Shown here: positions 20,621-38,114 of the stretch, piece after piece
Numbering within the stretch: the stretch's first letter is position 1
Layout of the letters: each line of letters starts with the position of its first letter
Source of the DNA: Candidatus Phosphitivorax anaerolimi
Lineage (GTDB): Bacteria; Desulfobacterota; Desulfomonilia; UBA1062
Direction of reading: 5' to 3'
DNA length: 64,000 nt
Assembly (NCBI GenBank): GCA_001896555.1
Contig: MPOS01000011.1
Span: 30,223 to 94,222 of the forward strand
Translations under genes and position numbers: made by a program
The notes under the pieces: model-generated
Databases searched by the model: none
The model's input: the letters and a program-made list of their open reading frames with translations, nothing else
Told to the model about the DNA's origin: nothing

Positions 20621-23044
20621 ATGAAGATACGTTCTATCTGGACCTTGCCGGCAGTGGGCTGTATGATGCTTTTCATGGCGTCCTGTTCCGGGAGCAGCCA
20701 TACCGATGAAGTGATCGCCGAAGAATCGATATACGACCCCGGCGCTCCCGTCTCGGCCGTGGGCTTTGGCGAGGCCTGCGGCATCCGGCTCTTTCTCCAG
20801 GATGAGAACGGCGGCCTTTCTCCCCTGAACGATGGCGATTATGTGGAACCCGGAAGCAGGAGGTTCGCGGTGGAAACTGCGTGCGACCCCTTGTCGATCG
20901 ACCGGGTGCTTGTTTCTGACGGAGCGGCCTACCAGGAGGAGGCCTTGCCCCAGGACGGCAGGTACACCTGCGAGTTCGCCGTGAGCGCAGACGATCTCTA
21001 CCAGGTCGTGCTCATCCAGGCCGTGCATCCGAGCGGGAGGGCGAGCAAGGAAAAGATCGTTCTTCGGACAGCCCCGCCCCTGCCTGCAGGTTCGTATGCG
21101 AAAAACGCCGTGGGAATACTCGTCGCCCAAGAGCTGCTCGATCTGCAGAAGCAGGATCTCGCGGCGCTTCTCGATGAGAAGATACAGGAGTTTTTCTCCT
21201 CCATCCGCCAAAACGGCCCTTCGTTCATAACCGATCTCCGTTATGGCGACAGCGATCCCTCTACCGTGGATGTCGTGGTCCACTCCATCGATGCGGTCCG
21301 TTTCGATGCTGAGCCGTCGGCGGTCCTTCGTGTTAGATTCACCATCCGGGACGTGACCCTCGCCGCCCTGCCCATGTTCGGCCAGGACTTCCTCTCGACC
21401 TCGGCAAACGATCTCCTGGTGGATGCGTATCTCGCCGTCGATGACTCGGGGGAGGGGGGAGAGGTCCGCCTGGTGCTCGATCTCCTGGATTCAGTGAGTG
21501 CCGCTTTTTCCCAGCCGTTTTTCCTCAGGAGCTCGATCGAGCACATGATCGCATCCGAGCTCAGGAAGATCGAGCTGCCCCCGCTCTCATTCGACTCGGC
21601 GGGCGGCGGATATGATCCTGCGGAATTCCTGCCCGGGCAGGTTGAGGTATTCGGCTCTGTCGTGAATGTCCATGAACTCATCGAAGGGTTCGAGCTCGAT
21701 CCCGGCAGGCGTTTCTTTGCAGACGTCTACAGCATTCCCGGGGCGACCACGCATGAGATGCTCGCGCTGGGTCTCGGGCTCTGCTCACAGACGTCCGAGG
21801 ACGTCTCCTGGAGTTTCCCGGATGAGGTTCCGCCCTCTGAAAGTTTGGATATGGAAAAAGTGGTCTGCGGGCTTTTCGAGGATGCCGTCAACGAGGTGTT
21901 CGAAGGTATCAGGCAGGAATACGTTGGCGTGGTGACGAGCCTTGCCTACGGGGACGGTGACCCGGCAACCGACGATGTTATCATCGACTCCTTCATCCTC
22001 GGCAATACGGACGATCCGGGTGTGAGGACCGCTTCCGTCCGGTTCACCGTGAAGCAGGTCGATCTGGAGGCGGCAACCCTGTTCGGGGTTCCGATCATCT
22101 CCACCCGGGACAACGACCTTGCCGTCGATGCCGTGTTTTTTATAGAGCAGAGGGATGATGATACGGGAAGATGGATGGTCCTCTCTCCCGATTCACGGAC
22201 GGACCCGGTCGTATCGTTTGGAACGTGGTTTCTCGGAAGAGAGCTCGTGGAGGAACTGGTCAGGCAGGATCTGAAGGAGATGGCATCCCGCCCGTACGGC
22301 ATCGACGAGCTGCTTGCAGGGTTCGGGCTCGGGCTCGATCCGGGCTCGGTGTTCACCTCGGAGCCGTACGCCCTGTTCCCCGACGTTTCTCCCTTCTTCC
22401 AGGACCCCGGATGTATTTTGGCACTGCCGGACACCTTCTCTGTGAGCCTCGCCGTATCCCAGAACGCGATCAACAGGCTTCTTGAGGATATCGCAGGGGC
22501 TCAAGCCGAGCGGGACGTCTACGAGCTGATCAAGAAGCTTCTGGGAGAGGACTTTCCGGGCTTCCGGAGAGAGCCTTCCGCGGGAGAGCAGACGGTCATG
22601 CGGCTGAGCGTGCCGCCCGCTGTCGATGTCAGAGACTCCCGGATTCGGCTTTCCATTCCGGATATCGTCTTCCAGTACCGGACATCGGGAGGGCCGCAGT
22701 GGGAGGCGTCCGTGGATGTATGCCTGACCGTCACACCCGCAGCGTATTGGAACCGGCTCGACATCGACCTTTCCTGCGTTTCCGGGAAGAACCGGTTCCA
22801 CGTGATGAGAGACAACCCCAGCAATCTCGGCATCTTCGACCATTCCTCCCTGGTCGAGGATATTCTGGGCGGTCTGCCCAGACTGCTCGGAGGCTCTCCG
22901 GGCTCCGCTTTCCTGTCGCTCGGGCTCGACAGCTGGGAGCCCTCGCTTGTCTTCGAGGACAGGGACGAGCCGGTGCTCATATCGGCAGGAGGCGGCTACC
23001 TATTTGTCGATATGGCGGTGGGCGGCATCGATATCCTGCAATGA
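20621..23044 (+). CDS. Large (about 807 aa) hypothetical lipoprotein with an internal domain duplication.
   Basis: Lipobox LFMASCSG. Repeated module: LRYGDSDPSTVDVVVHSIDAVRFDAEPSAVLRVRFTIRDVTLAALPMFG versus LAYGDGDPATDDVIIDSFILGNTDDPGVRTASVRFTVKQVDLEAATLFG. Confidence 0.6.
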   Translation: MKIRSIWTLPAVGCMMLFMASCSGSSHTDEVIAEESIYDPGAPVSAVGFGEACGIRLFLQDENGGLSPLNDGDYVEPGSRRFAVETACDPLSIDRVLVSDGAAYQEEALPQDGRYTCEFAVSADDLYQVVLIQAVHPSGRASKEKIVLRTAPPLPAGSYAKNAVGILVAQELLDLQKQDLAALLDEKIQEFFSSIRQNGPSFITDLRYGDSDPSTVDVVVHSIDAVRFDAEPSAVLRVRFTIRDVTLAALPMFGQDFLSTSANDLLVDAYLAVDDSGEGGEVRLVLDLLDSVSAAFSQPFFLRSSIEHMIASELRKIELPPLSFDSAGGGYDPAEFLPGQVEVFGSVVNVHELIEGFELDPGRRFFADVYSIPGATTHEMLALGLGLCSQTSEDVSWSFPDEVPPSESLDMEKVVCGLFEDAVNEVFEGIRQEYVGVVTSLAYGDGDPATDDVIIDSFILGNTDDPGVRTASVRFTVKQVDLEAATLFGVPIISTRDNDLAVDAVFFIEQRDDDTGRWMVLSPDSRTDPVVSFGTWFLGRELVEELVRQDLKEMASRPYGIDELLAGFGLGLDPGSVFTSEPYALFPDVSPFFQDPGCILALPDTFSVSLAVSQNAINRLLEDIAGAQAERDVYELIKKLLGEDFPGFRREPSAGEQTVMRLSVPPAVDVRDSRIRLSIPDIVFQYRTSGGPQWEASVDVCLTVTPAAYWNRLDIDLSCVSGKNRFHVMRDNPSNLGIFDHSSLVEDILGGLPRLLGGSPGSAFLSLGLDSWEPSLVFEDRDEPVLISAGGGYLFVDMAVGGIDILQ

Positions 23045-23188
23045 AAATACGCTCCCTGCGATGAAAAGACGAGGATAACCGGGAAATCTCCTGTTTCCGT
23101 GGGGTAGGGTTCTATAAGGGCGTCCAGTCGGGTTTTTTCGGAATGATAAAGGGATAAACAGAGGTTGCGAATAATACAGGATTTATAA

Positions 23189-23209
23189 GAGTAATGATGA
23201 TTCATTATT
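23189..23209. promoter_or_regulatory. Second copy of the palindromic operator AGTAATGATGATTCATTATTA, 130 bp upstream of the MMPL exporter gene.
   Basis: Exact 21/21 identity to 20489-20509, and exactly 2700 bp away. Confidence 0.5.
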
Positions 23210-23340
23210 ATTGATTGGGCTGTGATCTCGGGAACATAAGCCTGATACGCCGTGGCGGGAGAGGTTTCATCGCTGCCGGTGGCGGCTGCATGGGCACGGT
23301 AGGTACCGGGATGAATCCGGCTTGAACAAAGAGGGGGTAT

Positions 23341-25770
23341 ATGAAAAAAATCGTTCGCTTCAGTGTAAATCGCCCTTGGCGGGTGATCGGTGCCGTGCTC
23401 TGCATCACAGTGTTTTTCCTTTTCCAGATTCCCCGGGTGAAGATCGATCCCCGGGTGGAGATCGTCCTGAAACAGAACAACCCGGTGGAAGAGGTGTATA
23501 ACCGCAACAGACAGGAGTTCGAATCGTATGCGGACGTGCTCATCGGGATGCTCCATGACGACGTCTATAACCCCGGCTCGCTGGAAAAGATCCGCAGGAT
23601 CACCGAAGAGGTGGAAAACATCCCGGGGGTGAAGAAGGTCACCAGCATCCTCAACGTGAAGAACATTGCGGGCGGCGAGGAAGGACTCAACGTCTCCCCT
23701 ATGGTCGAAGAAGGAGAGCTGCCCAGATCAGGAGAAGAACTGAAGGAGCTGCGGGAAAAGGCGCGGTCCTGGAGCGTGTACGAGGGTGTTTACATCACTG
23801 AGGACGGCAGCGGCACGGCCCTATCCGTGGTGCTCGATAACACGGTGGAGACCGATGACATCGTACCCATCTATTACACCCTGCTCGACATCGTGAAGAA
23901 ATACGAAGGACCGGAAGAGTTCTTCATCTCCGGGCCCACGGTGGTGGAGGCGCTTCAGGGACACTACATGATCAAGGACCTGAAGCTCCTGGTGCCCCTG
24001 GTCAATATCGTCCTGCTGGGGTTCCTATTTCTGTTCTTCCGGAACTTCAGGGGCACGGTGCTTCCCCTTGTCTCTGTAGGCATAGCATCCATCTGGACCA
24101 TCGGCCTGATGCCCATGTTCGACATCCCGTTGACCATGGTCACGAGCGTGCTTCCCGTGGCCCTGATCGCCGTGGGCTCTGCCTACGGCATCCATGTTCT
24201 GGAAAACGTATTTTCAGACGCGGAAGAGGGGAAGGCGGGCCTGTCCGGCATCATCACCGCGGCCACCCGTGTGAGCCTGCCCGTGATCATGGCGGGGCTC
24301 ACCACCATTGCATCGTTCATATCCCTGTGCACTTCCGCCATCGTCCCCTTAAAGCAGTTCGGCGCCCTGTCGAGCTTCGGGCTCCTCGCCGCGCTCATGA
24401 TATCGCTGACGTTTCTGCCTGCAGTGCTCGCAGTGGCAGACTCCCGGGGATGGAAATACCGGCCCCACCACCATTCGAGCAGGGACTGCATCGGGCCGGT
24501 GCTGGTATTCTTTTCCCGTATCAGCCTGAGAAGGAGCGGGCTCGTTCTGGGAATCAGTGCCGTCCTGCTCGTCCTTTCGGTGGGTGGCGGCCTTCAGGTC
24601 AAGAGCGACCTGAACCTCATCGAGGACTTCCGGAAGGGGAGCCCCATCCGCATCGCGGATGAGGTGCTGAATGAAAAATTCGGAGGAACGTCTCTGTTCA
24701 ATGTGGTGCTGGACGGCATGGAGCCCGACGATATCAAGGACCCCGCCGTCCTGCGCGAGATGGACGCCCTTCAGAACAGGCTCATGGGCATGAACAATAT
24801 CGGAAAGGCAGTGTCGGTGGTGGACTTCATCAAGCGGATGAATCAGGCCATGCACGACGGAGATCCGGCGTTCTATACCATCCCCGAATCAAAGGACCTC
24901 GTGGCCCAGTACCTGCTCCTTTTTTCATTCTCGGGCGGGAGCGGCGAGCTCGACAGCTTCGTGAACTTCGACTGCAAAAGCGGTCAGATCCTGCTGCAGA
25001 TGAAATCCCAGAGCGGGTATCTGGCACAGGATGTGGTGAACCTGGTCAACGGCTATCGGAAGCAGGAGCTGAAGACCTCCCGCGTCGCGGATATATTCAC
25101 CACCGGCCTGGCCATGCTTGCAAAGGAGTTCAACCGCCTGGTGGTGGAAAGCCAGGCCAGCAGCTTCGCTGTTTCCTTTATCCTGGTAATTTTCATCGTC
25201 TCCGCGATGTTCAGGTCCTTCAAGCTGGGGTGCTACAGCGTGGTGCCGCTCGTGGTTCCCATTTTCCTGAACTTCGGGATCATGGGTCTGACGGGCATCA
25301 AGCTCAATGCCGCGACAGCAGTGATCGCCAGCCTTGCTATCGGCATCGGCATTGACTACTCCATCCATTTTCTCAGCCGGTACCGTCACGAGATCACGAT
25401 GCAGGGCAGCGTGGAAAAGGCCATCGAGAGATCGCTGCACACCTCCGGCAGAGCAATTCTGTACAACGCCCTTGCTGTTGCGGCGGGCTTTCTGGTTCTC
25501 GTGCCGTCGAACTTCGTCATCATCAGTCAGCTGGGCATACTCGTGGCCCTGGTCATGATCACCACATCACTTGCATCTCTCACCCTGCTGCCCGCCATAC
25601 TCAAAGTATTTCCCCCCCGGCTGGCTCACAGAACGGCCGAGACGACAATGTCGGTGTTTCCCGCCCGGGTTTTTCCTCAAGGTGTTCATCCCGGAGAGGA
25701 AAATGTGGTAGGATATCAGTACAAAACAACGGACAGACCAACGAACAGGAGGATCGAACATGACATGTAG
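23341..25770 (+). CDS. MMPL/RND-superfamily exporter.
   Basis: Twelve-TM, two-lobe architecture with large periplasmic loops, typical MMPL topology and motifs. Length 809 aa. Confidence 0.8.
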   Translation: MKKIVRFSVNRPWRVIGAVLCITVFFLFQIPRVKIDPRVEIVLKQNNPVEEVYNRNRQEFESYADVLIGMLHDDVYNPGSLEKIRRITEEVENIPGVKKVTSILNVKNIAGGEEGLNVSPMVEEGELPRSGEELKELREKARSWSVYEGVYITEDGSGTALSVVLDNTVETDDIVPIYYTLLDIVKKYEGPEEFFISGPTVVEALQGHYMIKDLKLLVPLVNIVLLGFLFLFFRNFRGTVLPLVSVGIASIWTIGLMPMFDIPLTMVTSVLPVALIAVGSAYGIHVLENVFSDAEEGKAGLSGIITAATRVSLPVIMAGLTTIASFISLCTSAIVPLKQFGALSSFGLLAALMISLTFLPAVLAVADSRGWKYRPHHHSSRDCIGPVLVFFSRISLRRSGLVLGISAVLLVLSVGGGLQVKSDLNLIEDFRKGSPIRIADEVLNEKFGGTSLFNVVLDGMEPDDIKDPAVLREMDALQNRLMGMNNIGKAVSVVDFIKRMNQAMHDGDPAFYTIPESKDLVAQYLLLFSFSGGSGELDSFVNFDCKSGQILLQMKSQSGYLAQDVVNLVNGYRKQELKTSRVADIFTTGLAMLAKEFNRLVVESQASSFAVSFILVIFIVSAMFRSFKLGCYSVVPLVVPIFLNFGIMGLTGIKLNAATAVIASLAIGIGIDYSIHFLSRYRHEITMQGSVEKAIERSLHTSGRAILYNALAVAAGFLVLVPSNFVIISQLGILVALVMITTSLASLTLLPAILKVFPPRLAHRTAETTMSVFPARVFPQGVHPGEENVVGYQYKTTDRPTNRRIEHDM

Positions 25771-26554
25771 AAGCCTGGCAGGATTGTTTCTTGGGCTGAT
25801 GGCGGCCGTCGCCGTGGTTCTGACGGCTCAGGGTCCGGCTGTGGGCGCGGAGATGAGCGCGTATGACATCGTGAAGAAGGCCGAAGACCTTCTCGACCAG
25901 GCCAAGGACAGCAAGGCCGACATGATCATGACCCTCGTGAACGACAAGGGCCAGAAGCGCGAGAGGAAGCTCAGCGCATTTGTAAAGAAATACGGGGAGA
26001 ACAGCTCGAAATCCATCCTGTTCTTCAACTCTCCGGCAGACGTCAAGGGCACAAGCTTTCTGGTGTGGACCGAAAACAAGGAAGACAAGCAGTGGCTCTA
26101 CCTCCCGGCTCTGCAGCGGGTGCGGCAGATCAGCGCGAGCGGCAGGGGAGAGAGCTTCATGGGCACCGAGCTCACCTTCTTCGACATGGGCAGCCACGAC
26201 ATCGACGAATACACCTTCAAAACGATCAAGGAAGAGGATGTCGACGGCGAGATGTGCTACATGATCGAGGCCCTGCCCAGGAAGGTGGAGTTCTACAGCA
26301 AAATCGATCTCTGGATCCGCAAAGACAGCTTCATCCCCGCAAAGGCGGATTTCTACGACCCCAAGGGCCGGTACGAGAAACAGGGCAGGTTCTCTCAGGT
26401 CAAGAACATCCAGAACATCAACACCCCCACACGCATCGAGATGCACAATGTGCAGAACGGCAGGACGACCATCATCGAGCTGAGCGATGTGGTGTATGAC
26501 TCCGGGCTGAAAGATGATATATTCACCGAGAGATACATGAAAAGGGGAAAATGA
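25760..26554 (+). CDS. Outer membrane lipoprotein-sorting (LolA-like) protein associated with MMPL exporters.
   Basis: Signal peptide. Segment KLSAFVKKYGENSSKSILFFNSPADVKGTSFLVWTEN...QWLYLPALQRVRQIS is typical of the LolA-like partner of MMPL/DUF1302 clusters. Confidence 0.7.
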   Translation: MTCRSLAGLFLGLMAAVAVVLTAQGPAVGAEMSAYDIVKKAEDLLDQAKDSKADMIMTLVNDKGQKRERKLSAFVKKYGENSSKSILFFNSPADVKGTSFLVWTENKEDKQWLYLPALQRVRQISASGRGESFMGTELTFFDMGSHDIDEYTFKTIKEEDVDGEMCYMIEALPRKVEFYSKIDLWIRKDSFIPAKADFYDPKGRYEKQGRFSQVKNIQNINTPTRIEMHNVQNGRTTIIELSDVVYDSGLKDDIFTERYMKRGK

Positions 26555-26813
26555 GATCGGAATGCCGGACCGCGAACACAGCAGAACCGTTCATTTCTGC
26601 AAGACTCGATTGCTTGGGCTCCCTCTCCCCTTGCAGGAGATGGATAGGGTGAGGTGGAAATAAAGTCACAGCTTCCACGCCTTCTCTCTGCCCCTCTGGG
26701 TACCCGCTTCAGCGGTTCGTGCGGAGGGGGCCCTGAGGGATTGCATGGTGGAGAATGCAACAGCCCCGAGTTTTGCGGAAGAAGGTGAGAGAACACACAA
26801 GAGCCGCGCACAA

Positions 26814-27164
26814 ATGCCGAAAACTCACGTCAGGCGCACCAGAGACCTCAGGAAGCGCTCCACCGACACAGAGCAGCCTCTCCGGCGGCACCTGCTGGCA
26901 AGGCAGATGTCAGGCCAGAAATTCAGTCGCCGGCAGACAGCCGGCGATTATATTGTCGATTTTCTCTGCTGTGAGAAAAGGGTGATCATCGAGCTCTATG
27001 GAGGCCAGCACGGCATTCACCAGGAAAAGGACATTATGCACGATTCATGGCTCAAAAAGCAGGGCCTTCGAGCTCTCCGGTTCAGGAACAACGAGGTTTT
27101 TTCCAATACTGACGGGGCACTGCAGACTGTCCCGGATGCATGCTCAGGGGGGGACGGGGCTTGA
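26814..27164 (+). CDS. DUF559 (Vsr-like endonuclease fold) protein.
   Basis: Segment LRKRSTDTEQPLRRHLLARQMSGQKFSRRQTAGDYIVDFLCCEKRVIIELYGGQH...LRFRNNEV matches the DUF559 consensus. I trimmed to the MPKTH start. Confidence 0.7.
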   Translation: MPKTHVRRTRDLRKRSTDTEQPLRRHLLARQMSGQKFSRRQTAGDYIVDFLCCEKRVIIELYGGQHGIHQEKDIMHDSWLKKQGLRALRFRNNEVFSNTDGALQTVPDACSGGDGA

Positions 27165-27298
27165 TCTTCAATTTCAACTCCCCCCACCCTGTCCCGCCTC
27201 CACTCAAGGAGGAGGGCGCGTGCACCCGTCGCGCCCAGCAGGGCTTCGCAGTGGGAGAGGGTCGGCGCTCCATTCCCCGGCATGCCGCTCAACTGCTG

Positions 27299-28792
27299 AT
27301 GCTGCTGGCTGCAGCGTTCATCCCGGCCTTCTTTTCCCCGCTCTACGCTTATGAGTACGATGGCGAGAACCTGGACATCTCCCTGAGCGGCTATCTCGAG
27401 GCCGGCGCCGTCTACGTACTGGACGACGAGTCGCCGGACGAGGATCCCACCACCGAGCTTGGCCTCGAGCTCAAGGCGGACTTTTCGACCGTGTCCACGC
27501 TCAAGATTTTTCTCCAGGCGGTGAACGACGGGACAGTCATCGACCCCCAAAACGGTCTGCTGTTCAATGAATTCGACAAGGTCTATCAGGACAAGAACCC
27601 GTACGTCGATATCGACGAGGCCTATGTGGACCTGTACTCGTCCTTCGTTGATCTGCGCATCGGCATCCAGAAGTTCGCCTGGGGCAGACTCGACGAGATC
27701 AACCCCACCGACAACCTCAACCCCGAGGACTTCAGGCATGGCATCACGGCCGACGAGATCGACCGGAAGATCGGCGTGCCCGCTCTCCGGGCCAACACGT
27801 ATTCGGATATCGTCAATGTGGAGCTGGCCTGGATACCCTGGTTTGTCCCCTATCGTCTGCCCACACCCGAGGAACGGTGGTTTCCGGGCGTGCTTCAGCC
27901 TCCTTCGTCTATCGACACCGGCACGTCGGCCGGCGCCATCCCGGTGGCCGCCCGATACAAGGATGTCGACGTCCCCGAGTTCAGCCTCGACGACTCCCAG
28001 GCAGGGATCCGACTGTCGAAATATGTCGGAGGCTGGGATCTCTCCGTAAGCTATTTCAGGGGCTACGATACCGTACCGCTCACCGATGTGGTCTCCGACC
28101 TTACCGTGGACCTTATCGACCCGCTGTCCCTCTCGTACGACCTTGCCCTAGACCTCACCTATCAACCGGCTCTCCATCGGATCCAAGTCTTCGGCTTCGA
28201 CTTCGCCACCACGGTGAGCTCGTTCACCATCCGCGGCGAGTTCGCTTATTTCAAGGGCAGGCATTACAACCGCAAGCTCGAGTCCGTTCTCAGGCAGGAG
28301 ATCACCCCGGCCCGCCAGCAGGCGATCATCGACGAGTTCATGCAGAACTATCTCGACTCCGGGGGGGCGGCGTCGCGGCAGACCTTCCGCATCGACCCGG
28401 AGGTGAACATCCAGATGGATTCCATGAAGTACGGGCTCGGCATCGACTATATCTACGGCGACACGAGCGTAAGCCTGCAGATGATCCAGGAGCTCATACC
28501 GGACTACGACAGGGACAGGCCGGTCTACTTCAACAAGGAGGGCCTGGATACCTTCCTCACCCTTCAGCTCAAGCAGTTCTTCCTCCAGAACACCATGGAG
28601 CTCGACCTGCGCGCCGCGTACGGCATCGAGTTTCAGGAGTATCTCGTGAAGCCCTCGCTGAAGTACAATTTCACCAACACGCTGCAGGGATCTATCGGGG
28701 TCGTGGTCCTGGGCGGCAAATACGACGACTCGCTCCTGGGTCAGTTCGACGACAACGACCAGATCTATGCGTTGCTGAAGTGCTTTTTCTGA
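27299..28792 (+). CDS. Outer-membrane protein, DUF1302-like, partner of the MMPL and LolA-like genes.
   Basis: Signal peptide MLLAAAFIPAFFSPLYA. Alternating beta-strand-like pattern. C-terminal KCFF ending in Phe. Genomic context with the MMPL and LolA-like genes. Confidence 0.5.
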   Translation: MLLAAAFIPAFFSPLYAYEYDGENLDISLSGYLEAGAVYVLDDESPDEDPTTELGLELKADFSTVSTLKIFLQAVNDGTVIDPQNGLLFNEFDKVYQDKNPYVDIDEAYVDLYSSFVDLRIGIQKFAWGRLDEINPTDNLNPEDFRHGITADEIDRKIGVPALRANTYSDIVNVELAWIPWFVPYRLPTPEERWFPGVLQPPSSIDTGTSAGAIPVAARYKDVDVPEFSLDDSQAGIRLSKYVGGWDLSVSYFRGYDTVPLTDVVSDLTVDLIDPLSLSYDLALDLTYQPALHRIQVFGFDFATTVSSFTIRGEFAYFKGRHYNRKLESVLRQEITPARQQAIIDEFMQNYLDSGGAASRQTFRIDPEVNIQMDSMKYGLGIDYIYGDTSVSLQMIQELIPDYDRDRPVYFNKEGLDTFLTLQLKQFFLQNTMELDLRAAYGIEFQEYLVKPSLKYNFTNTLQGSIGVVVLGGKYDDSLLGQFDDNDQIYALLKCFF

Positions 28793-29037: not shown

Positions 29038-31851
29038 TCAGCTCAAAGAGAGGAGATACGATCTCAGGTTCGCCTTTTCTTTCTTCAGCCCCAGCTTGTC
29101 TCTGATGTTGTTCCGGTGGAACTCTACGGCACGCTTGGAAATGTTGAGCAACTCCGAGATTTCCTTGGTCGACTTGCCCTCGCGCACCAGGTTCGCCACC
29201 TGGATCTCGGTGGGGGTGAGATTCAGATATTGGGCGGAGAGCTTCTGGAGGAAGGGAGAGATGATGTCGCCCAGGCTCGATTCCAGGAGCTGCACGTAGG
29301 CGGCCTGCCTGTCGTCGAGCGAGCATGCCTTGAGCTTTTCCAGATAGGGCAGGGCCAGCTCCTTGATGTTGGACAGGACCTTTTCCTCGAGCTCCTTCTT
29401 GTCCTGCTCGCCGCGCTTGAGCAGCACCTTGAGCGCGGTGTTGGCCTCCTCGAGATTCAGCGACTTGAGCTGAAGCTCCTCTTCCTTGCGCATGAGCGTC
29501 TGCTCGGCCAGCTTGCGCTCCTCGATCTCCCGCTTCAGCCTGATGTTCGCCCGGACGAGCTCCTCGGTCCGCTCCTCGACCCGTTGCTCGAGGCTCTCGT
29601 AGGCCTTCTGCAGCTTCTGCTCGGTGAGCTTGCGCTCGGTGATGTCCACGAACGAGCACAGCAGGCAGATGGGCCTGCCGTTCTCGTCCTTCACCATGCT
29701 CGCGGAGAGCTGCACCGCGATGGGCGTCCTGTTTTTCTTGACCGCGATGATCTCCCCGAACCAGGTGCCCTTTGCGAGCACGGTCTGGAGAATAGCGTCC
29801 GCGTCTTCCCGGGACTGGGCGAAGGTGAGCGCCGACTTTCCCAGGACCTCGGACGGATCCTTGCCGCCCCACATGCGGAGAAAGGCATCGTTGACATAGG
29901 TGATGTTGCCCTGAAGATCGCCGATAGCGATGCCGTTGATGGATGACGAGATGGCAAAGTCCTTGACCCTGAGCTCCTCTTCCATCTTCTTGCGCTCGGT
30001 GATGTCCACGAACGAGTCCATCACGCAGATGGGCTCGCCCCTGTCGTTGTACACCATGCTTGCCGAGAGGTGGACCGTGATCGGCGAGCCGTCGCTCCGG
30101 AAGCCGGACACCTCCCCTGACCAGCTTCCCTTCTCCACCACGGCCTGGAATATCTCCAGGGCTTCTTCTTCCGACTGCGCCAGATCGAGAACCGACCTGC
30201 CCAGTACCTCGGAGGGGTCTTCAGCACCCCACATGGCCAGCGCCGCGTCGTTGACGTAAGTGATCTTCCCTTCCAGATCACAGAAACCGATGCCGTCGAT
30301 GGACGAGGCGATGGCGTTTTCCCTGACCCTGAGCTCCTCTTCCATCTTCTTGCGCTCGGTGATGTCAACGAACGAGTCCATCATGCAGATGGGCTCGCCT
30401 TTGTCGTTTTTCACCAGGCTTGCCGAGAGCAGGACCGTAATCGGCGAGCCGTCCTTGCGGAAGCCGGACACCTCGCCCGTCCAGCTTCCCTTTTCCACGA
30501 TGGCCTGGAAGATCTCCAGGGCCTCCTGCTCGGATTGCGCGAGGTCCAGCGCAGACCTTCCCAGCACATCGGAGAGATCGCTGTCTCCCCACATCTTCAG
30601 GGCCGCATCGTTCACATAGGTGATTCTGCCTTCCAGATCGGAAATTCCGATGCCGTTGATGGACGAGGCGATGGCGTATTCTTTTATCTGTAGATCCTCC
30701 TCCATCTTCTTGCGCTCAGTGATGTCCACGAACGAGTCCATCATGCAGATGGGCTCGCCTTTGTCGTTTTTCACCAGGCTTGCCGAGAGCAGGACTGTAA
30801 TCGGCGAGCCGTCCTTGCGGAAGCCGGACACCTCGCCGGTCCACCCGCCTTTCTCCAGAACGGCCTGATAGATTTCTATGGCCTCTTCCTCCGACTGGGC
30901 TAGACTGAGCGCCGAGGTGCCGATGACCTCGGACGCATCCGGGGCCCCCCACATCTTCAGGGCCGCGTCGTTGACGTAGATAATGTTGCCCTCCAGGTCC
31001 GATATGCCGATGCCGTTGATGGACGACGCTAGGGCATTGTTCCTGATGCGCAGCTCCTCCTCCATCTTCTTGCGGTCAGTGATGTCCACGAACGAGCACA
31101 TGATGCAGATGGGCTCGCCTTTGTCGTTTTTCACCAGGCTTGCCGAGATGAGCACGGTGAAAGGATCACCGACTTTCCTCTTTGCGTTGACCTCTCCCTC
31201 CCACCTGCCGCTGGTGCGGATGGTGTCGATAATATCGAGGATCTCCTCCTGTGACTGGGCGAAAATCATCGCAGGTTTTCCCAGGACCTCATCGGGCTTT
31301 CCGGCACCCCACATCTTCAGGGCCGAATCGTTTGCATAGGTGATGACGCCGTCGAGGTCGGCGATGACGATGCCGTTGATGGACGAGGCCAGGGCGCTTT
31401 CCTTGACCCGCATCTCTTCTTCCATTTTCTTGCGGTCGGTGATGTCCACGAATGAGCACATCATGCACACGGGCTCGTTCGATTCATTGCGGACCAGGCT
31501 GGCCGAGAGCAGGACGGTGACCGGCGAGCCGTTTTTCCGCCGGCCGTTGATCTCTCCCGTCCAGTCGCCTTTGCACAGCACGGTCTCCATGATCTCCAGG
31601 GCCTCCTGCTCGGACTCGGCGAACACGGTCACCGGCTTGCCGATGATCTCCGCTGGGTCGGTCCCGCCCCACATCATGACGGCTGCCTGGTTCACATAGG
31701 TGATGGTGCCCTGCAGGTCGCCGATCGCAATGCCGTTGATCGACGATGCGATGGCGAACTCCTTGATCCGCAGCTCTTCCTGGATATACCTGAGCTCGTC
31801 GATCTTGTCTTTCAGGGGCTTGACTTCCTCGCTCATGCGGCTCGGCGGCAT
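29038..31851 (-). CDS. LuxR-family transcriptional regulator with eight tandem PAS domains and a C-terminal GerE-type HTH.
   Basis: C-terminal TPTEIQVANLVREGKSTKEISELLNISKRAVEFHRNNIR. Eight repeats of about 120 aa, each ending DITDRKKMEEELR/DITERKKMEE. Confidence 0.85.
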   Translation of the reverse strand: MPPSRMSEEVKPLKDKIDELRYIQEELRIKEFAIASSINGIAIGDLQGTITYVNQAAVMMWGGTDPAEIIGKPVTVFAESEQEALEIMETVLCKGDWTGEINGRRKNGSPVTVLLSASLVRNESNEPVCMMCSFVDITDRKKMEEEMRVKESALASSINGIVIADLDGVITYANDSALKMWGAGKPDEVLGKPAMIFAQSQEEILDIIDTIRTSGRWEGEVNAKRKVGDPFTVLISASLVKNDKGEPICIMCSFVDITDRKKMEEELRIRNNALASSINGIGISDLEGNIIYVNDAALKMWGAPDASEVIGTSALSLAQSEEEAIEIYQAVLEKGGWTGEVSGFRKDGSPITVLLSASLVKNDKGEPICMMDSFVDITERKKMEEDLQIKEYAIASSINGIGISDLEGRITYVNDAALKMWGDSDLSDVLGRSALDLAQSEQEALEIFQAIVEKGSWTGEVSGFRKDGSPITVLLSASLVKNDKGEPICMMDSFVDITERKKMEEELRVRENAIASSIDGIGFCDLEGKITYVNDAALAMWGAEDPSEVLGRSVLDLAQSEEEALEIFQAVVEKGSWSGEVSGFRSDGSPITVHLSASMVYNDRGEPICVMDSFVDITERKKMEEELRVKDFAISSSINGIAIGDLQGNITYVNDAFLRMWGGKDPSEVLGKSALTFAQSREDADAILQTVLAKGTWFGEIIAVKKNRTPIAVQLSASMVKDENGRPICLLCSFVDITERKLTEQKLQKAYESLEQRVEERTEELVRANIRLKREIEERKLAEQTLMRKEEELQLKSLNLEEANTALKVLLKRGEQDKKELEEKVLSNIKELALPYLEKLKACSLDDRQAAYVQLLESSLGDIISPFLQKLSAQYLNLTPTEIQVANLVREGKSTKEISELLNISKRAVEFHRNNIRDKLGLKKEKANLRSYLLSLS
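29560..31720. repeat. Tandem array of about 360-bp direct repeats (about 6-7 units) encoding the PAS modules of the regulator. Units 30360-30720 and 30720-31080 are near-identical.
   Basis: Out-of-frame ORFs recur at 30260, 30620, 30980 and 31340 with near-identical translations. The protein segment GEVSGFRKDGSPITVLLSASLVKNDKGEPICMMDSFVDITERKKMEE is repeated. Confidence 0.8.
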
Positions 31852-31978
31852 GATGATCTCCTCCTGATAACAGTAATCATCGATGTATCGAGAATGACGA
31901 TAGTATCATATCTCCGGTCCAGGTATCAAATAAACTGCTCACATTTGATGCTGCGAAAAGAGGTTTTCTTAAATACTA

Positions 31979-32959
31979 TCAGAACGGGATCACCACGCCG
32001 ATGGAAAAGGTTGATATGATCTCCTGCTCGAACACACCAATCTTGACGGGATCTTCAGGGTTATACGAGGACATGTCGTCGCCCTCGTAATAGTCGGGGT
32101 CTCTGGTTTTGTACGACACCTCCAGCACGGGGTCGAAGTTGTCCAGATCATACATGGCCGCGCCGGCCTCCGCCACGAGTCTGATATTGTTCTTGAACGG
32201 GATATAGATCCCGGCAAAGACCTGCAGGAGCTGCCCGAACACGGTTTCGGAATCATCGAGCCTGATCCGGTATTCAGACCCCTGGTAAGACTGCTCTCTG
32301 ATCGCGTCGCTTTCCACCTCGCGCGTCGCCATGCAGAAACCCAGGCCCCCTCCGATATAGGGGTTGATCCTTTTTTTGTCTCCTCCGTGGTGCTCGTAGA
32401 CGATGTTGAATGAAAGGGGCACGATGTAGAGCGTGGTGTCGAGGTCGACTCTCCGGAGCAGCTCGGCGCTGGTGATGATGGCCTCTCCTTCACCGCGGTA
32501 GCTGCTGCCCAGGTTTTTGTCGTTGATGTCCTCTGCGGTGACGCCCGGCTCGTTGGAGCCGGGGAAGGTCTCTTCCGCCTCCATGATGATCGACTCCCGG
32601 TTGCTGCCCGTGTCCCACTCCCCCCTGAGCATGATCACCTCGAGCGAGGCGAGGAACGAGATCTTTTCCTTGATCTTTTTTTTCGCACCCAGCGAGACGG
32701 ACAGTCCGTAGTCGAGGAAATCACGGAAGTCGCTGTCGTACACCGCGAATGCGCCGCCGGATTTTATCGAGTAGGAGAAGGTCTGGTCGCGGGGAAACTG
32801 CTGTTTTCTGGGCGCCGACACCAGGATCTCTTCGTCCTGGGTGAGGGCTGCCTTCATGGCGGGAGACTCGGGATTTGCCGTGCGTGAGAGGTTTTCGGAA
32901 CTCCAGACAACGAGCGGAAACGCCAGGATAAAAACAGTGTATGCAGCTATACGGCTCAT
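31979..32959 (-). CDS. Hypothetical outer-membrane beta-barrel protein.
   Basis: Signal peptide MSRIAAYTVFILAFPLVVWSS. C-terminal FSIGVVIPF ending in Phe. Alternating hydrophobic pattern. Confidence 0.5.
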   Translation of the reverse strand: MSRIAAYTVFILAFPLVVWSSENLSRTANPESPAMKAALTQDEEILVSAPRKQQFPRDQTFSYSIKSGGAFAVYDSDFRDFLDYGLSVSLGAKKKIKEKISFLASLEVIMLRGEWDTGSNRESIIMEAEETFPGSNEPGVTAEDINDKNLGSSYRGEGEAIITSAELLRRVDLDTTLYIVPLSFNIVYEHHGGDKKRINPYIGGGLGFCMATREVESDAIREQSYQGSEYRIRLDDSETVFGQLLQVFAGIYIPFKNNIRLVAEAGAAMYDLDNFDPVLEVSYKTRDPDYYEGDDMSSYNPEDPVKIGVFEQEIISTFSIGVVIPF

Positions 32960-33382
32960 TATAACGATCCTTAAGGCCCTTTCTTTCATATGTGCTGCCT
33001 GGAAAAAACATCCTCACCCCCGGCTGCCGCAAGGGGATAACATGTGTTCGATTCACGAGTCATGCAAGAATTATTCCCTGCCATCTATTTCGCAGGAAGC
33101 GGATAAGACTTGACATTTTATCCATGAATCTTTCATGATCCGCAGCCTGAAAGAAAATAATTTCTCCTAAAGGGCAAAACCTTGCATATTCACAAGTGAC
33201 TGCCCTTGTGATCATATCTGTTGCAATGGCGGGGCAAAGATGATTAAATAAAACAGCCATAATGAGGTCCGCTCCCGTGATTGCTGCGTTTGTCTGTTAT
33301 GCAATGGATACTGATCCAGGTCTCATCTGCAGTCATCTCTGCCGAGCAGGACGGCGAGAACCTGTGTAGGAGGTTAGAACAT

Positions 33383-34354
33383 ATGAAGGGACACCGGATA
33401 TTCCCTCTTGTCGCGGCAATCTTCTTTCTGGCATGTGCGTGCGTTTCGTGTGAAAGCGGTTCAAGCAGCAGCGACCCCGGAGAGGTCCTGCCTCCGAGAC
33501 CATGGGATAACCCTATGCCCGATCCTTCAGACGATACGACATCCTCTAGCATGGAATTGATAGGGTCTTGGGTTGGGTATTTTCTTGCCGGTGACGACGA
33601 TGTATTTGACGATGTATTTAATTATAGCAACGAAAACGATAATCCCCTGGAATTTGATTTTGATGATGATGATCTTTTTGCAATAGGGATCATTACCCGG
33701 GAAAAAGAAGCAAGATTTATTGGAGATACGTCGCAGTTCGTATGTCCTGAAGGTTCATTGGGAGCAAGTAATATTGCTGGCATTAGAACTATATTCGGAG
33801 GATACTTTGACTATTATACGTGGAACACTCAGGGGCTCGAACCATACACCGCCAATGTGGAGCCTATCTCCATCTATGGAAATGCACTCTTTTCCATATA
33901 CTTTCTTGACGGCTTCTATTGGTATACTGACACACCGGAAGCCGACAGGGATTTCTGGCAATTCCAGTTCTTCAACTACACCACCACCGGGATATCCGCG
34001 GATATTGAAAAGATCGCGGGCCAGTGGAAGATCAGCGATGCGTTCTGGAAGGGCAACACCCTGACTTTCACCATAGAGCCCAACGAAGACCGTAGGAGCG
34101 CTACCATAACCGGCACCGACACTCATACCCCTCAAAATACCTTCGAGGGAACCATCATCGAGATACACTATGACGACACCGACTTGTACGATGTCTCGCT
34201 CAAGCTCAACGAGGAATTCGACCTGGAAGGCCTGGCGACCTATGTGTCCAGCTACGATAACCAGGGTATACACGCCGAGTCTTCCCTCGCCATCGGCGTA
34301 TCCGACGGGCAACGCATGGTCACCGGCCTGGCGGCGCCGGTGCCCGAGGAATGA
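33383..34354 (+). CDS. Hypothetical lipoprotein with an acidic low-complexity segment.
   Basis: RBS TAGGAGG 8 nt upstream. Signal peptide MKGHRIFPLVAAIFFLACACVSC. Acidic run DDDVFDDVFNYSNENDNPLEFDFDDDDLF. Confidence 0.55.
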   Translation: MKGHRIFPLVAAIFFLACACVSCESGSSSSDPGEVLPPRPWDNPMPDPSDDTTSSSMELIGSWVGYFLAGDDDVFDDVFNYSNENDNPLEFDFDDDDLFAIGIITREKEARFIGDTSQFVCPEGSLGASNIAGIRTIFGGYFDYYTWNTQGLEPYTANVEPISIYGNALFSIYFLDGFYWYTDTPEADRDFWQFQFFNYTTTGISADIEKIAGQWKISDAFWKGNTLTFTIEPNEDRRSATITGTDTHTPQNTFEGTIIEIHYDDTDLYDVSLKLNEEFDLEGLATYVSSYDNQGIHAESSLAIGVSDGQRMVTGLAAPVPEE

Positions 34355-34810
34355 CGCGCGGCAAGTGCTTCATTCACCGAGGATGCTTGCTATGTCTTTC
34401 TGTTGGTAATTATTTTAAGATATTGCCGGATGCTCTCTCGATCATGCCTCCGGTAGACCGTTTCGTCCCATCATTCTCTTCTGGGTGATGGATCTTCGCT
34501 CCCATCGACCAGGGAGGTCAGCACACCCCCTTTGAACAGTACGCCATCCGAGCGGCATGCCGGGGCTCCTCTCCTCGATCCGCTCAAGCGGATACCCCGG
34601 AGAGAGGGGCAGGGAGAGTTGTTTGCAAACCAGGGGTCTGCAAACCTGTCCCCCTACCGGAGAAACGGCGTATTTCCCGTGTTTCTGCCAGGAGGTACGA
34701 CCCCGGAATGGATGAAAATCTTTTCATTAATTCATGGAAAAATGTTTCTCTTTTTCCTTTCGTGTTTGAGAGCATAGATTATAACTAATTGAATTATAGA
34801 TAATTTTATA

Positions 34811-34826
34811 TGGCATGCTTATTGCT
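34811..34826 (+). promoter_or_regulatory. Sigma-54 (-24/-12) promoter TGGCAT-N5-TTGCT, upstream of the 34900 gene.
   Basis: TGGCATgcttaTTGCT matches the RpoN consensus TGGCAC-N5-TTGCW with GG to GC spacing of exactly 10 nt. It is preceded by an AT-rich tract. Confidence 0.55.
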
Positions 34827-34899
34827 GAATGGGTAGCCCATGGAGACCAGAGAAAGAGGCGTGCATCCAGAGCATATCTTATTCAATTCGGAGAGATCA

Positions 34900-35478
34900 A
34901 TGCGAGGTCGGATGTTTGTAGCGATTCTTCTTGCCCTGTGTCTGTTCTGTTCCCCCGCCCACGCCTGGATGTGGGAAGTCGGCGACGAGGTTCTGGCCGA
35001 GATAACCGGCGAAGGCTATTCCAGTTTTACCCTCGAAAACGAAGTCGCCCGTGCATACTTCAACATCACCACCACCACCTACACCGAGATCGATTCCCTG
35101 AAAATGGGTTACTACGACAACGGCACCGGATACGGGTGGGACGAAAACTGGGAAGGCGTATCCCTGGGTTCTGCCTCCGAGAGTCTCGTGTGCAAGGGCG
35201 TGTACATCGAGGCGGGTTTTTCCAACATGACAGACCCTGCCACCCGGCAACTCAATTTCGTCAGGGTGGGCACACCGTCCATGACAGGCCCCATCAGCGC
35301 AAACTTTATTTCGTTCAGCGGCCGCATCGAGAACCCCACGGACGGCGTTCTCGTGGACGGCAGCCGGCTGAATCTCGGCCAGAGAACGATCTACTGCAAC
35401 AATTCGGAGTTTTCCGTAACCCTGGACAGGACCTCCGGCTGGTGGTTCCACTGGGACAATGCAACGATTACCCCGTGA
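34900..35478 (+). CDS. Secreted hypothetical protein (193 aa) carrying the cluster-specific mature-N-terminal motif.
   Basis: Signal peptide MRGRMFVAILLALCLFCSPAHA, then WMWEVGDEVLAEITGEGYS. RBS GGAGAG. Confidence 0.6.
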   Translation: MRGRMFVAILLALCLFCSPAHAWMWEVGDEVLAEITGEGYSSFTLENEVARAYFNITTTTYTEIDSLKMGYYDNGTGYGWDENWEGVSLGSASESLVCKGVYIEAGFSNMTDPATRQLNFVRVGTPSMTGPISANFISFSGRIENPTDGVLVDGSRLNLGQRTIYCNNSEFSVTLDRTSGWWFHWDNATITP

Positions 35479-35737
35479 TATGAGCAGAGAGGAAAACTGA
35501 CAGGGAGTATGCATTCGGTTGTTTTGAATTGAAGTAGGGAGATCGAGTTCAAGGAGCATCTCCTTAGCCCCTGTGGTTTTGGTTATACAAAGTACCGTGA
35601 AAAGGGGGTGATGTGCTGGCAAACGTGAAACAGGAGAAATCGAAAAGCGTTACACCGTTAGGCATGAGTAGTTGGGTAAAAAACTAAAAAGCAAGTAACA
35701 GGCACCACAAAAAATAAATTTTTGGAGGCATTAAGTT

Positions 35738-36784
35738 ATGAAGAGAGTATTGACGTTTTTGGCTATCATGTTGCTGCCATTGTCCGTAATGGCAATGACA
35801 CCGGTTTCCGACCAGACCCTCTCCGATGTTACCGGCCAGGCCGGAGTCAACATCAATGCTGACCTTATGATGGACATCGCCATCGGCACCATGGCATGGG
35901 GCGATGCCGACGGTATCACTGCAAGCGGCAGCTGGCCTACCTGGGGCACCACTGCTGACGGCGGCTACGTGGGAGTCACCGGGTTCGACATTGACGGCCT
36001 GAGAATCAAGGCCCGCGAAACCGACACCTATCACGAATATGCGGCACCTGCACAGCTGAAGCCCATCACCATCGACGTTGCCACCGATCCAAACATCTAC
36101 GACGGAGCGACCTTTGTGCGGTTCGGCCTCGGCTCCCTCCAGATCACCATGGGCGCCCTCGACTTCGACGTGAGGCTCGGGACTGACGCGGCAACCCTCG
36201 CGGCTTCCGGCAACCTGCTCGGTGTTGTGAGCATCGGCGCCATGGGCATCTACATCGATCCCAAGAGCTATGTTGACATCTTCTCCGACGGCACCTGCGG
36301 CGTGAACATAGCCATGGACATCGAGATCGATCAGTTCAACATCGGCTACGTGTCCTGGGGCGACACCGACGGCGTGACCAACACAGGCATGGGCGCGATG
36401 CCCTGGATGGCTGCGGCTAGCGCCGGTTATGTCGGACTTGCCAACCTCGAGATCGGCGGCCCGATCACCGTCAGCGGTCAGCTGGCAATCGATGTCAACA
36501 CCGCCTATGCCGGCATCTACTCCCACGGCATAGTCGGGACCGATGCGGGCGCAGCCCCTGTGAGCGTTGTTCACATCCAGTTCGGCTCCGACGTCTACTC
36601 GGATCCCACTCTGGGCGCTGCTGACCTCTTCTCCGTACTCGTCGGCCCGATCACTGCCGAGGTGAAACTCGACGGCGTGGCAGCCCTGGACGGCGCCAAT
36701 GCCGGCACGCTGGGCGACATCTACATCAGCAGCTTCGGCCTCGACATCTATGGCGGCAGCTGGGTGGACATCTGGGCCCACTAA
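35738..36784 (+). CDS. Secreted protein, paralog A (348 aa). It carries the N-terminal LSDVTGQAGV motif, internally duplicated WGDxDG modules and the C-terminal SWVDIWAH.
   Basis: Signal peptide MKRVLTFLAIMLLPLSVMA, mature N-terminus MTPVSDQTLSDVTGQAGVNIN. The duplication WGDADGIT...GGYVGVTGFDIDG versus WGDTDGVT...AGYVGLANLEIGG. Confidence 0.7.
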   Translation: MKRVLTFLAIMLLPLSVMAMTPVSDQTLSDVTGQAGVNINADLMMDIAIGTMAWGDADGITASGSWPTWGTTADGGYVGVTGFDIDGLRIKARETDTYHEYAAPAQLKPITIDVATDPNIYDGATFVRFGLGSLQITMGALDFDVRLGTDAATLAASGNLLGVVSIGAMGIYIDPKSYVDIFSDGTCGVNIAMDIEIDQFNIGYVSWGDTDGVTNTGMGAMPWMAAASAGYVGLANLEIGGPITVSGQLAIDVNTAYAGIYSHGIVGTDAGAAPVSVVHIQFGSDVYSDPTLGAADLFSVLVGPITAEVKLDGVAALDGANAGTLGDIYISSFGLDIYGGSWVDIWAH

Positions 36785-36811
36785 TCAACTGCTGACTCAT
36801 GTGTAATCGAG

Positions 36812-36839
36812 AAAGGAGGGTTGGCTGCAACCCTCCTTT
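36812..36839 (+). terminator. Perfect 12-bp-stem hairpin AAAGGAGGGTTG-GCTG-CAACCCTCCTTT between paralogs A and B. Candidate partial terminator or mRNA stabiliser.
   Basis: Read from the sequence, 28 bp after the paralog A stop. There is no strong U-tract. Confidence 0.45.
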
Positions 36840-36898
36840 CTCTTCCAGGGAACATCATGCAATGCGGTGACAGGTGAGAATCGGAGGAAGAGAATTTT

Positions 36899-37924
36899 AT
36901 GAAGATAATGAAAAGCGCATCACTGGCCGTGCTGATCGTTGCGTTCCCGCTCTCCATGATGGCCATGACGCCGGTGCGGGATCACGATCTCTCCCAGGTG
37001 ATCGGCCAGGCCGGTGTGAGCATCAATACCGACATCATGATGAACATCGCCATCGACACCCTGGCATGGGGTGATTACGACGGCATTTTCGAAGGCGGCC
37101 ATCCCTCCTGGGGCACCACCGCTGACGGCGGCTATGTGGGACTGGCCGGGTTCGACGTCATCGGGCTCAGGATCAAGGCCCGCGAAAACGACACCTTCGG
37201 CGGGTATTCCGCTGCAGCGGACTTCAAGCCGATCACCATCGACGTCGCCTCCGACCCGACCTACAGCCTCTACAGCGGGTTCACCTTCGTGCGGTTCGGC
37301 CTCGGCTCCCTCCAGATCACCGTGGACCAGATGGACTTCGCGGTCTTTCTTGCAGCCCCCGGCGCCCCGGGCCAGGTGCTCGGCACGGTAAATCTCGGCG
37401 CGCTCGCCATGTACGTCAACCCGTGGAGCTACGTAGACATCTATAACAGCAGGCCGGGCAACCAGTGCGGGGTTTTCGTGACCATGAGCGTCGTGATCGA
37501 CCAGCTCGATATCGGCTATCTGTCGTGGGGCGACATTGACGGCGTGGCCAATGAAGGCATCGGCGCGATGAGCTGGATGTCAGATGGCGCGCAGGGAGCC
37601 GGCTATGTCGGGCTCTCCAACCTGCGAGTGTGGGGGCCCATCATCATGCAGGGAACGGTCGCCATCGATGTGACGACCTCGTATGAAGGCATCTACGCCC
37701 ACGGCTCGTTTGGGGACCCGGGCTGGGCCCCTGTGAGCGTTGTGCACATCGGGTTTCCCCAGGTATTCAGCCTGGATGTGGCGGGACCCATCACCGCCGA
37801 TGTGAAGCTGGACAGCTTCGCTTCCCTGAACAGTCCTGATGCCGGCACACTGGGCAACATCTATATCTCGGGACTCGGCATCGATATCCTGAACCGCAGC
37901 TGGGTGGACATCTGGGCGCACTGA
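36899..37924 (+). CDS. Secreted protein, paralog B (341 aa). A tandem duplicate of paralog A.
   Basis: Signal peptide, then MTPVRDHDLSQVIGQAGVSIN. Same WGDxDG modules and the identical C-terminus SWVDIWAH. Confidence 0.7.
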   Translation: MKIMKSASLAVLIVAFPLSMMAMTPVRDHDLSQVIGQAGVSINTDIMMNIAIDTLAWGDYDGIFEGGHPSWGTTADGGYVGLAGFDVIGLRIKARENDTFGGYSAAADFKPITIDVASDPTYSLYSGFTFVRFGLGSLQITVDQMDFAVFLAAPGAPGQVLGTVNLGALAMYVNPWSYVDIYNSRPGNQCGVFVTMSVVIDQLDIGYLSWGDIDGVANEGIGAMSWMSDGAQGAGYVGLSNLRVWGPIIMQGTVAIDVTTSYEGIYAHGSFGDPGWAPVSVVHIGFPQVFSLDVAGPITADVKLDSFASLNSPDAGTLGNIYISGLGIDILNRSWVDIWAH

Positions 37925-38114
37925 GCCCTCTCCGAGAGTCAAGCCCCGAGGCGCGGCACTGGTATAGATTCTTGAGGATGAAGATCAGGCTCTTGAGGCA
38001 GGGAAATTTTTCTTGCCTGTCTCAAGATAATGAGTGAATAGATCGAAGAGACAGTATGTGCAGAAAACAAGTGCAGGTTCGTATGGAGCGGCGGGAATGA
38101 AAGGAGATAAAGGT

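Follow-up and report, generated by a model that had tools for sequence, protein, structure and literature searches.

A predicted LuxR-type regulator with six tandem PAS units and a unit number that differs among assembled relatives

Proteins with several PAS domains are common, yet why a sensor needs more than one of them is poorly understood. KinA carries three PAS domains, while the PimM / PteF-type regulators are proteins of about 200 amino acids (aa) with a single PAS. Surface proteins of the alpha C / Rib and Bap type are known for in-frame DNA repeats the size of a domain, which grow and shrink in number through homologous recombination; these repeats are nearly identical, belong to surface antigens and turn over fast. 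The actinobacterial PAS-LuxR regulators of the PimM / PteF type are cluster-situated transcription regulators with the PAS domain N-terminal to a LuxR-type helix-turn-helix (HTH; PMC9394381). In Synechocystis DgcA, which contains several PAS domains, PAS number is reported to affect output (PMC10124867). Poly-HAMP arrays, for example in Aer2, string varying numbers of modulatory domains along an uninterrupted helical backbone that links input to output (PMC13446029). Here we describe a gene of Candidatus Phosphitivorax anaerolimi (contig MPOS01000011.1, positions 30,223 to 94,222; this stretch of 64,000 nucleotides (nt) is called the window below) that encodes a predicted regulator with six PAS units in front of a LuxR-type HTH.

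Taking the evidence together, it is probable that the protein is a soluble one-component regulator with six PAS units, whose array stems from old duplications and changes by slow, in-register gain and loss of units and by gene conversion. In the searchable literature we found no direct precedent for tandem-PAS LuxR arrays or for PAS copy-number variation, only general papers on multi-PAS proteins, PAS-LuxR regulators and poly-HAMP arrays. A homogeneous, strictly periodic PAS array with a unit number that varies at one locus is unusual.

Six PAS units and a LuxR-type output module

The regulator gene (29038..31851, minus strand) is a real and complete open reading frame (ORF) of 937 aa according to the ORF list and Pfam, and comprises an N-terminal helix, six PAS units, a helical stalk and a GerE HTH. 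Its product is 100% identical to P0002/P0003 from public Desulfomonilia metagenome-assembled genomes (MAGs). A previous sequence-only reading of this DNA had proposed a LuxR-type regulator with a tandem PAS array built from a 360-bp repeat, which was upheld by the Pfam GerE match and by six 360-nt copies. The eight modules it had counted were rejected, since Pfam and a hidden Markov model (HMM) of the unit both arrive at six. Six stretches each were detected by the Pfam families PAS_9 (E 3e-100), PAS and PAS_4, six likewise by TIGR00229 (sensory_box), and the unit HMM gave exactly 6 matches over the whole window. Tandem Repeats Finder (TRF) reported a period of 360 and a repeat search six copies with spacings of 360, 360, 360, 360 and 360, as expected from the 360-bp direct repeats described before. 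The array is arranged head-to-tail, in frame and without indels at a period of exactly 120 aa or 360 nt, far beyond chance. The linker motif VDIT[DE]RK occurs at aa 135, 255, 375, 495, 615 and 735, and DIT(D/E)R is found in all six units.

All units lie on the minus strand. Unit 1 (aa 21-140; 31432..31791), unit 2 (aa 141-260; 31072..31431) and unit 6 (aa 621-740; 29632..29991) have a CxxC motif in strand I, versus CxxD in the internal units 3 (aa 261-380; 30712..31071), 4 (aa 381-500; 30352..30711) and 5 (aa 501-620; 29992..30351), and this pattern is kept in orthologues. The cysteine at unit position 109, in strand I, is conserved in every unit. Strand I cysteines occupy aa 129/132, 249/252, 369, 489, 609 and 729/732 (window 29632-31791). 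The two motifs define two classes of unit, and amplification and deletion in relatives concern the CxxD class.

An AlphaFold2 model of the full protein (24-sequence alignment, mean predicted local distance difference test (pLDDT) 72.5) contains six canonical PAS folds, each with strands A, B, G, H and I plus helices (pLDDT 70-87), and linker helices of 18 residues, each beginning at the DIT(D/E)RK motif. The last 210 aa, modelled separately (pLDDT 86), form a continuous helix of ~104 residues, a return helix and a four-helix HTH. The long helix (aa 738-841; 29329..29640, minus strand) is presumably a coiled-coil stalk and belongs to no Pfam family. In the models the return helix (aa 847-876; 29224..29313, minus strand) forms a hairpin with the end of the stalk. 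For stalk and hairpin (aa 741-876) Pfam yielded sub-threshold noise only, e.g. PrgH and CREPT, and a Foldseek search of the C-terminal model against the PDB matched the HTH alone, with no counterpart for stalk or hairpin.

The HTH itself (aa 877-937; 29041..29223, minus strand) is of the GerE/NarL type by Pfam, by PDB sequence matches and by Foldseek. Pfam GerE (PF00196) covers aa 877-924 with 49.9 bits (cut-off 23.5), which confirms the GerE-type cap named in the previous reading. Sequence matches in the PDB were EsrB, EL222 and RhlR, while Foldseek returned NarL, RcsB, FixJ, VpsT and EL222. The domain superposes on NarL (1je8) with a root-mean-square deviation of 0.9-1.0 Å over 47 columns and on RcsB with 1.1-1.2 Å over 61 columns.

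Judged by its domain content, the protein is 'LuxR-family' solely through this HTH. Pfam detected no Autoind_bind domain as in quorum-sensing LuxR proteins, only PAS families, GerE, related HTH families and marginal partial matches. Nor did Pfam detect a Response_reg domain as in NarL-type response regulators, and the NCBIfam response-regulator models cover only the HTH (aa 869-933). A hydrophobic or membrane segment was looked for in the protein and none was found. With no receiver, no autoinducer-binding domain and no membrane segment, the protein is therefore predicted to be a soluble one-component regulator. That is, it appears to be a cytoplasmic PAS-plus-LuxR-HTH transcription regulator of a known kind.

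The output module (aa 741-937; window 29041-29631) has 3,364 representatives at E<=1e-30 in a 50%-identity library, where it is fused to very different N-terminal sensors and preceded by N-terminal regions of all lengths; its helical part has no Pfam model. By these matches the module constitutes a large, uncurated family of one-component regulators.

In the mechanism we propose, the six PAS modules on their 18-residue linker helices would feed into the ~100-residue helix, the return helix and the NarL/GerE-type HTH. The protein is presumed to form a parallel dimer, in which a PAS signal would travel along the helical spine and alter DNA binding.

Comparison of orthologues gave a ratio of nonsynonymous to synonymous substitution rates (dN/dS) of 0.06-0.21 for every unit and of 0.07-0.09 for the output module, so that each PAS unit is, by this measure, maintained by purifying selection. 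Variability among the units peaks at unit positions 41-90, above all 61-70 (the long helix before strand G), while strand I, the DIT motif and the linker vary least. In the PDB a PAS unit found only weak sequence matches, the best being MmoS, NifL and phototropin LOV (E 4e-6 to 1e-3). In the whole protein the regular expression [NG]C[RK]F, for the NCRFL cysteine motif of LOV photosensors, found nothing, CxxCH is absent and there are only 2 histidines among the 937 aa. Heme or LOV sensing was rejected for lack of motif support. The conserved strand I cysteine is a possible lead towards thiol, redox or metal sensing, and modules that carry it might respond to redox or thiol chemistry.

These data also bear on an alternative in which the PAS units bind no ligand and serve structure or oligomerisation, so that the array would be chiefly a spacer or scaffold of loosely constrained length instead of a set of sensors. 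All six units are closely alike, LOV and CxxCH motifs are missing and histidines are scarce, matches to flavin-binding PAS domains are weak (E 1e-6 to 1e-3), and unit number is tolerated from 1 to 9, as would be expected from such an array. But a spacer sits poorly with strong purifying selection on each unit, with the conservation of Cys109 and of CxxC in units 1, 2 and 6 across orthologues, and with a variability that peaks where helices usually form the wall of a PAS pocket. In addition, PAS removal is reported to alter strongly the activity of a multi-PAS diguanylate cyclase (PMC10124867, citing Ishikawa 2020). We consider such a scaffold unlikely.

Divergence, conversion and turnover of the units

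At the DNA level, most pairs of units are 67-72% identical, and units 3, 4 and 5 share 78-81%. Between units, dS is 0.7-1.0 and dN/dS 0.14-0.48; with such synonymous divergence the unit duplications are therefore old. Over the whole unit, units 3 and 4 (30712-31071 and 30352-30711) share 81% identity at the DNA and 82% at the protein level, but in a mosaic fashion: the last ~126 nt (30712-30837 and 30352-30477) are 97-98% identical, the middle of the unit only 60-73%. Within these tracts lies an exact repeat of 68 nt (minus strand; 30728..30795 in unit 3 and 30368..30435 in unit 4), in agreement with identical hairpin matches 360 nt apart. The near-identity of adjacent units claimed earlier thus holds for their last ~126 nt, but not for the units as a whole. 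Whole-unit near-identity, as in concerted evolution, was absent from the window genome and present in a relative (L013, 93-96%).

Units 3 and 4 differ synonymously at 26 of 53 codons in the first two-thirds but at only 3 of 40 in codons 79-120 (p=1.2e-5). The same drop in the last third is seen in the pairs 3-5 and 4-5 and is absent from pairs with units 1 or 2. In different six-unit strains of one population, the exact run shared by units 3 and 4 measures 68, 83 or 110 nt. Mosaic identity, synonymous drop and strain-variable exact runs together point to ongoing gene conversion that homogenises the 3' thirds of units 3-5 and is limited to this part of the internal units. Since the most conserved stretch is also the recombination substrate, a crossover there preserves frame and register. 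The 68-nt copy in unit 4 is a likely substrate for the unit-4 deletions described below.

We propose that the array arose from old tandem duplications of one 120-aa unit. Given the exact 120-aa register, any unit-to-unit crossover would stay in frame and leave the linker geometry intact. Unequal crossover in the conserved 3' third or the linker would then delete or duplicate whole internal units. The first and last units would be retained, and unit number would come to differ between strains and species while changing slowly.

Among the 120 best homologues, in which units were counted and aligned by HMM, protein lengths step by 120 aa (697, 817, 937, 1057, 1177 and 1297), complete proteins carry 4 to 9 units and 431 of 502 unit spacings are exactly 120 aa. 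Genes with 4, 5, 6 and 7 units occupy the same syntenic locus in Desulfomonilia MAGs, and 8 and 9 units occur at related loci. With digits naming the units present, the architecture 123456 was found in 20 of 25 distinct strain-level protein sequences, 12356 in four (P0026-29) and 12346 in one (P0031, unit 5 lost, from a single low-coverage contig). The six-unit protein P0012 is unchanged on 16 contigs. Sister lineages show 13456, 1356 and 12356, unit 2 being missing from the P0041-48 and P0065 lineages, and more distant relatives bear additional copies of the internal-type unit. Units 1 and 6 are kept in every relative; the first and last units are never lost. When GTDB species representatives were scanned with the output module, arrays of 1-7 units turned up in Desulfomonilia and Syntrophales/Smithella MAGs, and the bare module in many Thermodesulfobacteriota and some Rhodobacteraceae.

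In one relative (L013:8001-11120, ERZ25039512 contig_23602) four adjacent internal units share 93-96% DNA identity with exact runs of up to 185 nt, and we read these four units, from their sequence, as a recent amplification. A transposase and a reverse-transcriptase gene lie downstream at the L013 locus. As far as assemblies tell, close relatives differ in copy number at the orthologous locus. The suggestion of the sequence-only reading that recombination alters unit number was borne out by syntenic orthologues with 4-7 units, by related loci with 8-9 and by near-isogenic strains that differ by one 360-nt unit. Unit turnover appears to be slow, because 20 of the 25 strain-level sequences keep six units; six units predominate in the window species, and the pattern does not look like phase variation.

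Unit number could itself be a selectable tuning parameter; the repeated, independent loss of one and the same internal unit in a single natural population and the recent four-fold amplification of one unit in a relative would then reflect adaptation of sensor gain or threshold. We regard this idea as doubtful. If true, the strict 120-aa register would let modules come and go without breaking signal transmission, a natural counterpart of modular sensor engineering.

The closest view of unit loss comes from near-isogenic strains in which unit 4 is cleanly missing (L001, L094 and L095). L001, with 5 units, matches the window at 99-100% identity from nt 361 of the gene through to its stop codon, bar one clean 360-nt gap, and at 99.5% over 8 kb downstream of the gene. 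The three alleles differ in junction haplotype: one junction fits a crossover inside the 68-nt run, whereas two fit a crossover closer to the linker, and therefore at least two unit-4 deletion events took place. L094 and L095 are MEGAHIT contigs built at k=141, from the same study series as a 6-unit contig. Since the longest exact inter-unit repeat, of 110 nt, fits within a 141-mer, their deletion junctions should exist in the reads, as we infer from the construction of de Bruijn unitigs. L007 and L008 hold the same 7-unit gene in two independent assemblies.

Several points weigh against a regulator array that slowly gains and loses units. Linker midpoints were modelled at low confidence (pLDDT below 55). 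In the window genome, exact runs shared between units span just 11-68 nt and dS approaches saturation, so that recombination there must be rare. Every individual unit-number variant rests on assemblies. Unit-4 deletions occur on several (at least 3) haplotype backgrounds, which fits recurrence or recombination, but recurrent assembly error would look alike. A 9-unit and an 8-unit sequence differ by one 360-nt indel and by 1 mismatch over 3,534 nt, but an exact repeat of 110 nt is involved; the unit-5 deletion allele (P0031) comes from a contig with 3.3x coverage.

The points on assembly would equally favour a static array, with all differences in unit number produced by collapse or path skipping in short-read metagenome assemblies. 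Such errors do seem to occur. The species representative Syntrophaceae bacterium UBA1062 (L023, DCDF01000058.1) is 99% identical to the window over the aligned part from unit 5 to the C-terminus and holds only two PAS units, unit 1 being joined directly to unit 5. This contig is probably an assembly collapse of the array, of the kind that the previous reading had warned of, and exact inter-unit runs reach 68-110 nt in the window population. The array region is open to mis-assembly, and copy number in short-read MAGs is not to be trusted without read support. However, for L094 and L095 k exceeds the longest exact repeat. The diverged lineages 13456 (on a 520-kb contig) and 1356 differ in unit number although their neighbouring units share runs of only 20-32 nt. 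Likewise, the 7-unit gene is identical in two independent assemblies, and contigs with names suggesting long-read assembly carry 2, 6 and 7 units. It is improbable, then, that artefacts account for all of the variation.

Still less can be said for a contingency locus, in which high-frequency switching of unit number within a clone, akin to phase variation, would diversify regulator output. In-frame indels of one 360-nt unit among near-isogenic strains, with at least two independent junctions, and conversion tracts that vary between strains would suit it. Against this, the units are just 67-81% identical with a dS of 0.7-1.0, and both the predominance of six units among strain-level sequences and the unchanged P0012 speak for stability. 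The switching repeats known so far are nearly identical and much shorter. We consider such a locus very improbable.

The sequence-only reading had also pointed to alternative-frame ORFs every 360 bp. Their recurrence is real: plus-strand ORFs of the ORF list lie at 29930-30259, 30260-30619, 30983-31339 and 31340-31699 (span 29930..31699). Their significance is not, since they recur because a Thr-Tyr codon pair is kept at unit nt 93 in five of the six units. The pair is encoded as ACC TAT or ACT TAC, which reads as a stop (TAG or TAA) on the opposite strand, so that antisense stops fall at five of six 360-nt steps; unit 3 has Ile-Tyr at this position and hence no antisense stop. The antisense ORFs owe their periodicity to the repeat and are not genes. 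Real antisense proteins of about 119 aa, which ORFs of 109-119 aa at 360-nt spacing might evoke, were rejected as hardly credible, since the stops sit opposite sense Thr-Tyr codons, the substitution pattern matches the sense frame (dN/dS 0.06-0.21) and the ORFs are absent from the gene calls of related loci.

Upstream signals and gene neighbourhood

The regulator starts with an ATG at 31851, and AGGAGGAG stands just 5' of it as ribosome-binding site (31858..31865, minus strand), with GGAGGA kept in orthologues. A consensus scan placed a putative promoter, TTGATA-N16/18-(GATACT/TACTAT), at 31900..31929 (minus strand), inside the 127-nt gap 5' of the regulator. In the upstream alignment TTTGATA and ATATGAT are common to the window, L001, L002 and L003. 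An operator search in the aligned upstream intergenic regions revealed, among close relatives, conservation of promoter-like and ribosome-binding-site sequences only, without a clear palindrome. Neither Rfam nor a tRNA scan gave a match in the 64-kb window.

The regulator had been described as divergent from a secreted-protein operon. This is not directly so, as a same-strand ORF of 336 aa (31979-32989) lies between, but it is true of the two genes as a unit relative to the DUF6160 cluster, and the syntenic orthologous loci examined share this layout. On this side, the orthologous loci contain a Peptidase_C39-like gene, three DUF6160 genes and two unknown genes, divergent from the ORF of ~330 aa and the regulator. 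On the other side, genes for DUF1302, LolA-like/DUF1329 and MMPL/RND-type transporter proteins converge on the regulator in most loci; this set is absent in L013 and not visible in L003, where the contig ends just past the regulator. In the window, the plus strand of 33281-44441 encodes three DUF6160 paralogues, a stand-alone Peptidase_C39-like protein, a Phenol_MetA_deg outer-membrane protein, a FadL/TodX transporter and a PD40 protein, and that of 20597-28792 an MMPL/RND-like transporter, a LolA-like/DUF1329 protein and DUF1302. For DUF6160 essentially no literature was found. The conserved envelope gene sets flanking the regulator suggest a role in the handling of hydrophobic compounds. It is plausible from conserved synteny that the regulator controls these adjacent envelope and hydrophobic-compound-transport genes.

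Between the LolA-like and DUF1302 genes is inserted a small ORF with DUF559, a Vsr-like endonuclease domain (26745-27164, plus strand). It is present in the close strains L001 and L009-11 and absent at that position in L002 and L007.

A segment of ~3.2 kb (31492..34679) stands out by a drop in identity and spans the first 360 nt of the regulator, and with them the region of unit 1, plus two upstream ORFs, 31979-32989 (minus strand) and 33281-34354 (plus strand), both with signal-peptide or lipoprotein-like N-termini. Compared with L001, L009 and L010, it is 73-88% identical in DNA versus 96-99.6% in the flanks. Its proteins are 54-77% identical to those of the flank-similar strains and 84-87% to the L002/L003 lineage. 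One breakpoint falls at the conserved 3' end of PAS unit 1. By this identity profile the segment looks like a recombined, hypervariable cassette of surface proteins, in which unit 1 would be imported.

Comparison with known systems

The natural alleles with 4, 5, 6 and 7 units, in the same genomic context and with intact frames (8 or 9 at related loci), provide a ready-made deletion and insertion series for the effect of PAS number on output. Moreover, a register of exactly 120 aa suggests that signalling through PAS-linker-PAS chains follows a structural rule.

Like EL222, the LOV-HTH light-regulated factor of Erythrobacter litoralis (PDB 3p7n, 8a5r), the regulator combines a PAS-type sensor and a LuxR/GerE HTH in one polypeptide, and the two HTH domains match by sequence (E 2e-4) and by fold. 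EL222, however, has a single flavin-binding LOV domain packed directly on the HTH, whereas the regulator has six PAS units without the LOV cysteine motif, and a helix of ~100 residues plus a hairpin separates sensor and HTH. With the PimM / PteF type it shares the order of PAS and LuxR-type HTH, a likeness established for the shared domains only; those proteins have neither a repeat array nor a long stalk.

Serial PAS domains before an output domain also occur in DgcA, KinA and MmoS (tandem PAS, PDB 3ewk), the last of which is the best PDB sequence match to a regulator unit (E 3.8e-6). But PAS domains in such proteins are usually mutually diverged and fixed in number, while the units described here are homogeneous, exactly 120 aa apart and variable in number at the orthologous locus. 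Poly-HAMP arrays differ in fold (four-helix HAMP) and belong to membrane receptors, so that they resemble the PAS array by analogy only. Finally, unlike the alpha C / Rib and Bap-type repeats, the repeats of the regulator are diverged, cytoplasmic and slow-changing.

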